Part shown: in pieces, positions 6,001-9,000 of the stretch
How positions within the stretch are numbered: position 1 is the first letter of the stretch
How the letters are laid out: every line of letters begins with the position of its first letter
From: Escherichia coli
GTDB lineage: Bacteria > Pseudomonadota > Gammaproteobacteria > Enterobacterales > Enterobacteriaceae
Strand: one strand, 5' to 3'
DNA length: 64,000 nucleotides
Assembly (NCBI RefSeq): GCF_003334335.1
Contig: NZ_QOWQ01000008.1
Made by a program: the position numbers

Positions 6001-9000
6001 TTCATCGACGCCATAGCCCATATGCACGACCTGGAAACCGTTGTCATAAGCGCCAGAACGCGGCGCATTGATACCAATAAAGCGCCCTTCTTTGCTTTCT
6101 GCGGCATCGAGAATGCGTTGACTGTCGGTTAACAGGCCACCAAATGTAATGACCCGACCGACCTGTACCTGCTCACGCACGATACGACCAATTTTGATTG
6201 CGTCGTCAAAAGAGATCACAGAGAGATTGGCGGTAATGTTATAGACCTGGCCTAAATCCGCCTCGAGATTATCGCCAATCGCAACCGCCTGATTGACCCA
6301 CAGAAATTGCAGATCATCGCCACGGCGCTCCACCTGCCAGCCAGCGGAAACTAATGCCTGCTCAACACGGTCAATCACATCGCGAAAAGGCATCCGCAGC
6401 GGCGGTAACGGGCGCGTGCCTAAAATTTCCTGATGCCCCATAAAGGTATCGCCACCTTCATGTTGCAGCTCTGCCACGCCCCAGGTTGCGGAATCTGACG
6501 GCTGCATATCGCCTGGCGCATAACCCAATGCGTTGATTAGCCCCAGCTTCTCCAGCGTTGGTAGCTGCAAATGCGGCAACTGGCTCAGGATGTGACCACA
6601 TGTATTCGCTCCCGCATCTTGCGGACGCACCAGCGTGACATCTTTCATTGCCCCTACGCCAAAGCTATCAATCACTAACACCACAAATCGCGCCATTACG
6701 CCCCCAGAGAGTTTCCAAGACTGTCATAACGACCGACGATTTCCGGTTCGCCACGATGAATACCGGACACCAGCACCACATCGCTACGGGTGACAAAAAT
6801 CTGCGTGCGAAAACAGAGCACCACTGCACTGCTTACCGGAAACTCGCCTGCCAGCGGCAGGGTGTAGTCGATACTGCTGTCATCCACAGTTTTGAGATTG
6901 GTTTCAGTAATCTTTTGATTTTCTGGCGTAAACACCAACGCATGTTGCGCATGACCACGACGATAGTAACCGCCGCCGTAGCAGTAGCTGTCGCCACGGA
7001 AATGATGGGAGATTTCACTTAACCAGAGCATCGCGATACGTTCAGGCTGATCGCCCTGCTGGTTTGCCGGAATAGTGCCCGTCAGCGCATGACCGGGTTC
7101 GGCATGAGTCACACCGTATTGCGCCAGTAATGGCAGCGAAGTGCAGCTGGTCGCTGAAGGCGCGTTCAGTTGCTCAAGTGCAATACCAGATTTCGCCAGT
7201 TGATCCCGTGCCTGTATCAGCGTGTGAAGATTCGGTGTCGGCAAAACTTTTCCGACAGCCTCATCCCAAAGCAGGCAAGGGAAATGGGTAAGTCCGGCTA
7301 AATGCAGCCCTGGCAGATTCTGGATTTCGGCGACAATCTCCGGCAACACCTTGAGGGCAAAACCGCTCTCCTGGCCCGGATAAAGAAAATCATCGTCGCT
7401 ATAAACTTTAAGCAGCACAGACTGGATTCGCCCGGCCTTCACCGCCGCCGCAGAAACTTCCCGCGCTTTGTCGAGAGTAAACACGGTGATGACGTCGGTG
7501 CCCTGTTCAACGGCGTCAGCAACCTGATGACAAGGGATTTGTACCAGATGCCCCTGATGCGCCACAGGCAAACCAGCGCGGCGCATGACTCGCGCCTCTT
7601 TGTAATCCACCGCCACAATGCCGCTGTAGCCTAATGCCAGCAATTTTTCCGCCAGCCACGGATTACGACCAAACTGCTTGGTCATCAGATACAGTTCAAT
7701 GCCGTAAAGCCGCGCCGTCTCAATCAGCCGCTTACCGTTTTCCAGTATCTGATCCACGTCGATCACCCAGCTGTCCGGGGCGATCTTGCCCTGCTGCCAC
7801 AGGCTTAGTGCGGCGGAAATCAGCGCCGGGTTCTGGCGTTTCAATGCTTCTACAAACATCTTGTTGCCTCGTTTCTGTTCCTTGAATTAAATATTCATTT
7901 TTTTGAATATTTAGGTTGTGCGACGTGGATTTGTCGGGAGCTTCAAACCTCTTCGTTAGCAGCCATCCATAATCCATAAAGGTTGGCCAGCAAATAGCCT
8001 TCTTCACACGGGTTAACTTCCAGTGCGAATTCCTTCAACAACACCTGATGCAATTGCACAACGGCTTGCCAGTGGCTGGATTGCGCCAGTTCTGCCAGCA
8101 ACTCGTTATCCAGCGGCTCTATTTCTTCACCACGGCGACTGCGCATCAGTGCACTCGCCATATGTGTCATCGCCATCGTTCCTTGCTCACTGCGCACCGG
8201 CAGATGGCACTCTGTTTCCAGTACGTTGACGACCTGCATCATGCCTTTGCAGATGTCCTTATCAATAACGCCTGCCTCGCAAAGCAGGTTGAGTCTGGTT
8301 TCCATATCAGATGCCTTTCGTTTAATAACTCGGTTCCTGTTCCCCACTCACTACCCGTTGTTGATGGGCGAGCAGGGCGTGTTTATCTACAACGGCACGC
8401 AGCAGTTGTTGCATTGGGTAATCATCGACTCGCGTCAGGACCACGGCTTCGGTGGCCTGTAAAAATCGCGGATCGTCTGTGAGCGGCGTCGCCTCTAATC
8501 CCAGCATGGTCAGTTCGTTTTCCGCCACCACGTTCCAGATCACCGCATCGACATCGCCTTTAACAATGCGTTGTAAACTCTCGTGATAAGAGAGATCGAC
8601 TCGTTCCACATCACTACCGCCAAAAAAAACATCGGTCATGATTTTCTGATCCGCCGAACGGTTATCCAGCCCCACGCGCTTCACGTTTGCGGACTCGCCT
8701 TTACGGCAAATCAACTGGTGCTCGCCAACGTAGGTGTGCGGCCCCAACTCCAGCGCGAGGCATAAGCCTTTTTGCGTGAGATAACTTTCCGCCGCTAGTC
8801 GCGAAACCACCGCCATGTCATACACGCCATTAAGCAGACACTCCACGCGAATATCCGCGCCACGCATGTGCGCATAGTAAAAAGGAATGCCATCAAACTG
8901 GGCTTTCAATCCGCTCGCCAGGCCTTCGTACAAACGGGTATAGGGCAAGGGCATTGCACATACCACGTTGTTGATATCCACATGAGTCAGCAATGCTTTG

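Follow-up and report, generated by a model that had tools for sequence, protein, structure and literature searches.

An inverted repeat conserved across Enterobacterales in the yhf control regions of Escherichia coli is a probable operator of the local regulator YhfZ

Background

Local repressors of the GntR superfamily, such as FadR and the HutC-type proteins, have a winged helix-turn-helix (HTH) and, at the C terminus, an effector domain, and they regulate both their own gene and a neighbouring catabolic operon. Their dyads lie in their own promoter as well as before the neighbouring structural genes, over or just after the -10 element, while many catabolic operons have in addition a CRP site upstream. 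The yhfZYXW-php-yhfUTS cluster, analyzed here in a 64-kb window of Escherichia coli DNA (the whole stretch under study), resembles such systems, as it encodes a winged-helix protein, YhfZ, and contains an inverted repeat between yhfY and yhfX (site A, 7888-7913) which recurs in two further copies just upstream of yhfZ (sites B and C), downstream of a CRP-like site. To our knowledge, YhfZ is among the remaining E. coli K-12 transcription factors without a known binding site, regulon or signal, and we know of no pathway assigned to the cluster. The comparison of loci presented below indicates that site A is probably one of three operators of YhfZ, and that this regulator probably acts as a repressor.

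The likeness to described systems has its limits. GntR-family sites usually have a GT-Nx-AC core, whereas the core found at the yhf locus is TTCA-N6-TGAA or, with distant homologues of the regulator, TACA-N6-TGTA, and unlike GntR-family sites, site A also conserves its central A tract. HTH_41 is a Pfam family separate from classical GntR, and YhfZ_C is set apart by Pfam from the effector domains of the GntR subfamilies. Short half-sites with 6 bp between them are shared with sites of the CRP/FNR type, a spacing at which the recognition helices reach successive major grooves on one DNA face, but the half-site sequence is another one, YhfZ is unrelated to the CRP family, and a separate CRP-like site lies upstream of sites C and B. 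ARG boxes, the sites of ArgR, have in common with the element the pentamers TGAAT/ATTCA, the AT-richness and, in E. coli, a distance of 21 bp between two TGAAT arms; however, an ARG box is TGAAT-N4-ATTCA, whereas the conserved yhf unit is ATTCA-N6-TGAAT and the extra TGAAT is limited to Escherichia and Citrobacter koseri. Finally, as in PRD-controlled regulators (BglG/LicT with their RAT RNA, or activators of the MtlR/LevR type), a PRD protein, YhfY, is involved, here encoded beside the regulator. Unlike in those regulators, YhfY is a separate PRD of 120 residues without a CAT or DNA-binding domain, and DNA binding would sit in a second protein; unlike RAT elements, the yhf element shows no RNA covariation and overlaps no terminator.

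Results

Three copies of one inverted repeat

The original prediction had described a perfect 10-bp inverted repeat between yhfY and yhfX, with which direct reading agrees: the arms taaatattca (7888-7897) and tgaatattta (7904-7913) match at 10/10 positions and are separated by a 6-nt spacer, tttttt (7898-7903). On the operon strand, which is the minus strand for all genes, sites and promoter elements of the locus, site A reads TAAATATTCA-AAAAAA-TGAATATTTA; it falls in the 83-bp gap between yhfY and yhfX (K-12 annotation) and ends 28 nt upstream of the yhfX ATG. The same 10-mer, tgaatattta, had been reported again at 9246-9255 and was indeed read there, 19-28 nt upstream of the ATG of yhfZ. The shared half-site near yhfZ was, in contrast, only part of the picture, as a repeat finder showed the whole 26-nt unit to be repeated twice, in tandem, just upstream of this gene, and the yhfZ leader holds two full palindromes, which makes three in all. 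Site B (9230-9255; TAAATATTCA-ATTTAC-TGAAAATTTA on the operon strand) contains the 10-mer, ends 2 nt before the yhfZ ATG, reads TAAATTTTCAGTAAATTGAATATTTA and matches site A at 81% (81-85% across repeat-finder entries). Site C (9254-9279; CTTATCTTCA-AATTCC-TGAAGATATA on the operon strand, with the dyad ATCTTCA-GGAATT-TGAAGAT) overlaps site B by 2 nt, the centres of the two being 24 bp apart; one entry of the repeat finder consists of three copies of 24 nt. The consensus of the three sites is TWAATNTTCA-N6-TGAANATWTA with the core TTCA-N6-TGAA, a dyad that is present in sites A, B and C as well as in their orthologues, with half-site centres 10 bp apart.

Three matches to the 10-mer were found in the window against 0.03 expected from dinucleotide shuffles. 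The original prediction had seen a danger in the 10-mer being common in AT-rich DNA; it occurs once in a 400-kb K-12 sample from elsewhere in the genome, approximately the random rate, and is thus not a common AT-rich word. The window contains six distinct perfect inverted repeats of at least 10 bp with loops of 3-10 nt, against 0.4 in Markov-1 simulations, and the palindrome of site A is the sole AT-rich one among them. The K-12 record has the same genes and identical sites as the window, the stretch around the palindrome matches 5079 of 5426 complete E. coli genomes, and a 58-nt stretch with site A in it occurs as a single copy in each of 5076 E. coli genomes.

An additional TGAAT (7883-7887) stands just outside site A in Escherichia and C. 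koseri and in no other genus; on the plus strand, positions 7883-7897 read TGAAT-TAAAT-ATTCA, an overlapping dyad that is ARG-box-like but has N5 spacing.

Conservation and specificity of the sites

A scan with YhfZ, using one genome per species, yielded 37 loci, which belong to Escherichia, Citrobacter, Klebsiella, Pluralibacter, Enterobacter, Buttiauxella, Cedecea, Lelliottia, Superficieibacter, Chimaeribacter, Serratia, and Photorhabdus; for site A, 36 sequences of about 12 genera were compared, all of which have the site. The order yhfZ-yhfY-yhfX is kept in all of these loci except two truncated ones (L035 and L037). No locus that extends as far as yhfX lacks site A, which reads TTAAATATTCAAAAAAATGA(A/T)TATTTA; its distance from the yhfX ATG is 27-37 nt, or 60 nt in Photorhabdus. 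Its 26-nt core has a mean column identity of 0.97 vs. 0.53 in either flank, and the yhfY-yhfX spacer outside the site is unalignable between loci. Only Escherichia, Citrobacter, and Klebsiella have the perfect 10/10 form. In front of yhfZ, site B is found in fixed register to the ATG in 33/37 loci and site C keeps its register at -52 from the ATG; the whole layout, i.e., TGTGA-N6-TCNCN, a TTTGC block, TTGnnn, site C, site B, 2 nt, and ATG, is in fixed register in nearly all loci. Signs of decay were noticed in three loci, namely a truncated yhfZ and absent operator sites in L035 (Superficieibacter sp. 1612_C1), an absent site B in L026 (Buttiauxella gaviniae), and a YhfZ match that breaks after residue 249 in L021 (C. 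koseri).

A weight matrix of 26 columns was built from the sites; as it was trained on them, their own high scores are circular, while the absence of other matches is not. In the window, the matrix gave 27-41 bits on the three sites (41.5 for site A, 37.8 for site B, and 27.4 for site C) and no more than 12 bits in the remainder. Applied to 303 kb of related loci, it recovered the same three positions alone (-52 and -28 for yhfZ, -54 to -63 for yhfX, or -86 in Photorhabdus), with no other match of at least 15 bits. The best score in the 400-kb K-12 sample was 21 bits, reached once at a sequence without a TGAA arm, and TTCA-W6-TGAA had 0 occurrences in this sample. Across these three sets of DNA, matches to the matrix were thus found only in the control regions of yhfZ and yhfX, as expected of an operator.

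The motif follows the regulator in distant homologues

YhfZ consists of an N-terminal HTH_41 and a C-terminal YhfZ_C domain (Pfam), the latter presumed to bind an effector. It is a member of NCBIfam NF041241 ('GntR family transcriptional regulator YhfZ'), PDB entry 2OZZ covers its residues 74-301, i.e., the C-terminal domain only, and the family comprises 668 clusters at 50% identity. The contexts of homologues 29-47% identical to YhfZ were fetched, and the type of motif follows the regulator in them, with one exception (L082, see below).

In six loci with regulators 31-47% identical to YhfZ, TTCA-N6-TGAA directly precedes the start codon or the ribosome-binding site of the regulator gene. The copies read TAAATCTTCATAAAAATGAATATTGG 12 nt before the ATG in L047, TCAATTTTCAAAAAAATGAAGATTCA abutting the ATG in L049, and TAAATTTTCAAAAAAATGAAAATTTA 3 nt before the ATG in L054, while the copy of L048 lies before the ribosome-binding site and that of L147 31 nt before the ATG. 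L052 has three copies, two of them in the spacer before the PRD gene and one after a TTGACA-16-TAAACT promoter with an upstream TG, which places this operator at about +5 to +30. In L058, a TTCA-type site is found about 170 nt upstream. Homologues 29-39% identical are accompanied instead by TACA-N6-TGTA, in the same geometry and at the same places: before both the regulator gene and the PRD gene in L050 (1380-1430 and 2400-2440) and L051 (480-527 and 1450-1499), in two copies before the regulator gene in L055 (600-705), and in one copy before the regulator gene in L056 (1040-1070), which has an imperfect one in the spacer before a phosphotransferase system (PTS) IIB gene. L053 has an imperfect copy only, TACA-N6-CGTA.

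In the protein alignment, E. coli residue 42, at the start of the presumed recognition helix and shortly ahead of its invariant G44...Q47, is Ser in 8/8 TTCA-type regulators (L058 included) and Ala or Gly in 5/5 of the TACA group (including that of the imperfect L053). A two-residue rule, SV vs. AR/GR, was also tried and failed on two added loci that combine 'SR' with TTCA-type sites, while residue 42 alone still correlates.

The exception, L082 (metagenome contig OLIJ01000009.1, 5690-6170), has yhfY-yhfX-yhfW-yhfU-yhfT with an AcrB-like gene upstream and no adjacent yhfZ, and keeps both operators: AAATATTCATAAAAATGAAGATAAA lies 5 nt ahead of the yhfY ATG, and TTAAATATTCAAAAAAATGAAAATAAA in the yhfY-yhfX spacer.

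The sites are therefore conserved and position-specific, and they travel with YhfZ-family genes. The suggestion that the palindrome is an operator for a dimeric regulator, possibly YhfZ itself, is backed by this conservation, by the position of the sites and by their co-occurrence with YhfZ homologues, and site A is, as far as comparison of sequences goes, probably one of three operators of YhfZ. A YhfZ dimer would read two TTCA/TGAA half-sites with centres 10 bp, or one helical turn, apart, together with the AT-rich flanks, a distance that corresponds to the geometry of an HTH dimer on successive major grooves.

Promoter context and sign of regulation

The CRP consensus is TGTGA-N6-TCACA. By its likeness to this consensus, TGTGA-AGTGCC-TCGCC at 9303-9318 is a putative CRP site, found as TGTGA-N6-TCNCN in register in nearly all loci, and together with the TTGnnn downstream it suggests that the yhf cluster is under catabolite control. 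TTGCGC (9280-9285) is a candidate -35 element, with at least 0.9 identity in the TTG columns and TTGnnn in nearly all genera (TTGACC in Serratia). If it is taken as such, a 17-nt spacer would place the -10 element at GAAGAT (9257-9262), within the right arm of site C. The start point would then fall in site B, about 22 nt ahead of the yhfZ ATG, and relative to it the CRP-like site would be centred at about -61, a class I CRP position. The tandem operators C and B lie between the CRP-like site with the -35-like TTGnnn and the yhfZ start codon, so that YhfZ bound there would mask both the -10 element and the start point, repressing the CRP-dependent promoter of its own gene.

For the internal promoter that the original prediction had also considered, the yhfY-yhfX junction gave no match to the sigma-70 consensus and has no conserved -35, and conservation is lacking upstream of site A; the right arm of this site contains GAATAT/GATTAT, which might serve yhfX as a weak -10 element. 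The 28 nt between site A and the yhfX ATG contain a conserved ribosome-binding site, GAGG. Site A would gate yhfX-yhfS, either as an obstacle to polymerase arriving from the yhfZ promoter or by covering a weak promoter at the junction itself.

An operator that covers the -10 element and start point, or follows the -10, is repressor geometry. YhfZ could nevertheless bind the sites as an activator or a dual regulator, as the -10 elements proposed above are weak and the promoters may need help. We regard this as unlikely, since the 28 nt with GAGG leave no room for a promoter and leader downstream of site A, an arrangement with which an activator site upstream of a promoter does not fit, sites C and B fill the distance from the -35-like TTGnnn to the ATG, and the operator of L052 follows the -10 element.

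Candidates for the binding protein

The binder could be a protein other than YhfZ, i.e., a nucleoid-associated or global factor with a liking for AT-rich A-tract DNA (H-NS, Fis, IHF, Lrp, or ArgR), or the element could be promoter- or UP-like and serve yhfX. Several features point in this direction: the sequence is AT-rich with a central A7 tract, yhfX is the first gene of its operon in a RegulonDB-derived table (PMC4448311), L082 has sites without an adjacent yhfZ, and the TGAAT arms are like ARG-box half-sites. Degenerate sites of nucleoid proteins would, however, not be expected to be as strictly conserved (0.97) or to hold one register from genus to genus, the motif is restricted to yhf control regions in the DNA scanned, and the switch to TACA-N6-TGTA accompanies a residue of the regulator's helix. 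The junction has neither a sigma-70 consensus match nor a conserved -35 to go with a promoter element, and in the ARG box, TGAAT-N4-ATTCA with pairs 3 bp apart, the order of the arms is opposite to the one found here, where the spacing is N6. A binder of this kind is somewhat less probable still than activation by YhfZ. The motifs of ArgR (the ARG box), Cra, MetR, TyrR, Fur, Lrp, Nac, and LexA were each compared with the element and rejected on spacing or arm order.

DNA site or RNA element

Terminator and attenuator functions were rejected on the basis of the sequence and a scan. As had been predicted, the palindrome is too AT-rich for a typical terminator, its stem having 1 G-C pair in 10; on the operon strand the stem is followed by AUUCAAGG, and a terminator scan made no call at the yhfY-yhfX junction, where neither a G+C-rich stem nor a U run is present, so the element is not a terminator. 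The attenuator that had been offered as another option is not supported either, and no compensatory change was seen.

The element could still work in the mRNA as an AU-rich hairpin in the yhfY-yhfX spacer and the yhfZ leader, affecting processing, stability or translation, and it might be recognized via the PRD protein, similarly to the RAT elements of BglG/LicT systems. In line with this, the E. coli 26-mer folds at -7.4 kcal/mol (z = -7.2), every copy lies in a transcribed leader near a start codon, an A run is present on the sense strand in all orthologues, and the PRD protein YhfY is encoded next door. However, the number of arm pairs changed on both sides is 0/10 in sites A, B or C across orthologues. 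TTCA and, in the right arm, TGA hardly vary, while the outer positions and the fourth base of the right arm break the symmetry: most genera have TGATTATTTA as the right arm without any compensating change, and in most pair 7-20 is broken, the outer pairs break freely, and pair 6-21 of site B is never Watson-Crick. In Serratia, the hairpin is not the minimum-energy fold. It is therefore the sequence that is conserved and not the pairing, which points to a protein-DNA site. In addition, the arm sequence persists even where the regulators share only about 33% identity, a behaviour typical of protein-DNA sites rather than RNA stems, one of the L052 copies is inverted, YhfY is without a CAT RNA-binding domain, the element overlaps no terminator, and no Rfam match to it was obtained at E <= 1. 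A fold is possible, but an RNA hairpin without covariation and Rfam match was rejected as the function of the element, and we consider action in the mRNA improbable, more so than any of the protein-based alternatives above.

That the palindrome is a functionless chance feature of AT-rich intergenic DNA is contradicted by the comparative data and has next to no probability left, since, short and AT-rich as it is and frequent as its 20-mer core is in AT-rich metagenomic DNA unrelated to yhf, three matches stand against 0.03 expected, the sequence is near-invariant over about 12 genera with divergent flanks, and three copies are found at homologous positions across loci.

Genes and other elements around the sites

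The yhf cluster lies on the minus strand in the order yhfZ, yhfY, yhfX, yhfW, php, yhfU, yhfT, yhfS. The gene of the candidate binding protein, yhfZ, occupies 8322-9227, with its ATG at 9225-9227, and is followed by yhfY (7943-8305, K-12 annotation), whose product is a small PRD-only protein of 120 amino acids. The presumed targets downstream of site A, yhfX-yhfW-php-yhfU-yhfT-yhfS, span 1818-7859 (open reading frames, K-12 annotation, and NCBIfam; the window coordinates of yhfS were obtained as an offset from K-12), with yhfX itself at 6696-7859 (open reading frame and K-12 annotation). In the RegulonDB-derived table, yhfX-yhfS form one operon with yhfX as its first gene (PMC4448311). The longest open reading frame of yhfY (7943-8347, GTG start, 134 amino acids) overlaps the end of yhfZ, while the K-12 form has 120 amino acids from the ATG at 8305; homologues align from this ATG, i.e., with the annotated 120-residue form. 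The PRD match of YhfY is weak (Pfam E = 9e-4), nothing else was matched, and TIGR03582 remained below its cut-off.

In nearly every locus with an assignable next gene, distant homologues included, a PRD gene comes next after the regulator gene. Downstream, the genes for DUF2620, YhfT, PTE, YhfS, and YhfX follow in varying order in the distant loci. In L056, a PTS IIB gene of the sorbose family (2102-2578) stands after the YhfZ homologue in place of the PRD gene, which fits a link between the YhfZ family and the phosphotransferase system.

On its upstream side, the yhfZ control region is bounded by the intrinsic terminator of trpS (9349-9370, minus strand), a 9-bp stem with 5 G-C pairs followed by a T run. 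The trpS-yhfZ spacer contains repeats of the REP/BIME type at 9400-9490 and, at 9453-9489, a REP-like, sub-threshold match to naRNA4 (Rfam); yhfZ has been counted among the genes preceded by BIME 'attenuator' clusters (PMC2965389). The other five perfect inverted repeats of the window (841-870, 1686-1714, 25016-25045, 27544-27567, and 31369-31396) are all G+C-rich and are probably terminators or REP-like elements.

Discussion

We infer that the yhf sites are operators of YhfZ, and several observations weigh against this assignment. In site A, the A7 spacer matches the arms in its degree of conservation, and it is found again in distant loci, which a plain dimer model does not explain, and the TTCA/TGAA core does not match the canonical GT-Nx-AC of the GntR family. 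A consensus scan called no promoter upstream of yhfZ or at the yhfY-yhfX junction, the elements given above for yhfZ having been assigned by hand. The correlation of Ser vs. Ala/Gly at residue 42 with the type of motif may reflect just two clades and hence one evolutionary event. As L082 keeps its sites without an adjacent yhfZ, the binder may be encoded elsewhere or be another protein. A metagenome search with the 20-mer core ATWTTCAAAAAAATGAAWAT found at least 120 stretches, and among the 120 listed 12 were at yhf loci, while the non-yhf ones were mostly DNA of 16-40% G+C; the 20-mer alone is thus not diagnostic in very AT-rich metagenomic DNA. Lastly, the open-access literature searched, which also covered the other yhf genes and DUF2620/HTH_41/YhfZ_C, contained no description of yhfZ sites or of a YhfZ regulon.

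Even so, YhfZ remains in our view the probable binder and repression its probable effect. The operator proposed here is of an ordinary local kind; the literature searched has no description, however, of this motif, of its layout in three sites, of the CRP-like site or of the tie to a PRD-only partner. Binding would be relieved by a ligand of YhfZ_C and possibly also by the PRD protein YhfY. The PRD neighbour and the PTS IIB gene in one distant locus suggest input from the phosphotransferase system. A more specific and rather speculative scheme, to which we give little credence, is that YhfZ and YhfY form a split, PTS-controlled repressor, in which YhfY, once HPr or a PTS enzyme II component has phosphorylated it, would act as the switch for binding of YhfZ at TTCA-A6-TGAA, and site A would act as a roadblock that uncouples yhfZY from yhfX-yhfS.

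Conclusions

The motif, together with three mapped sites and a putative CRP site, makes the 'putative regulator' YhfZ experimentally approachable, and it extends to a family of about 670 clusters. That the regulator is so steadily accompanied by a PRD-only protein suggests a connection to the sugar phosphotransferase system. If the split repressor were true, enterobacteria and the roughly 670 clusters of the family would have a route from the PTS to transcription that has not been described before.

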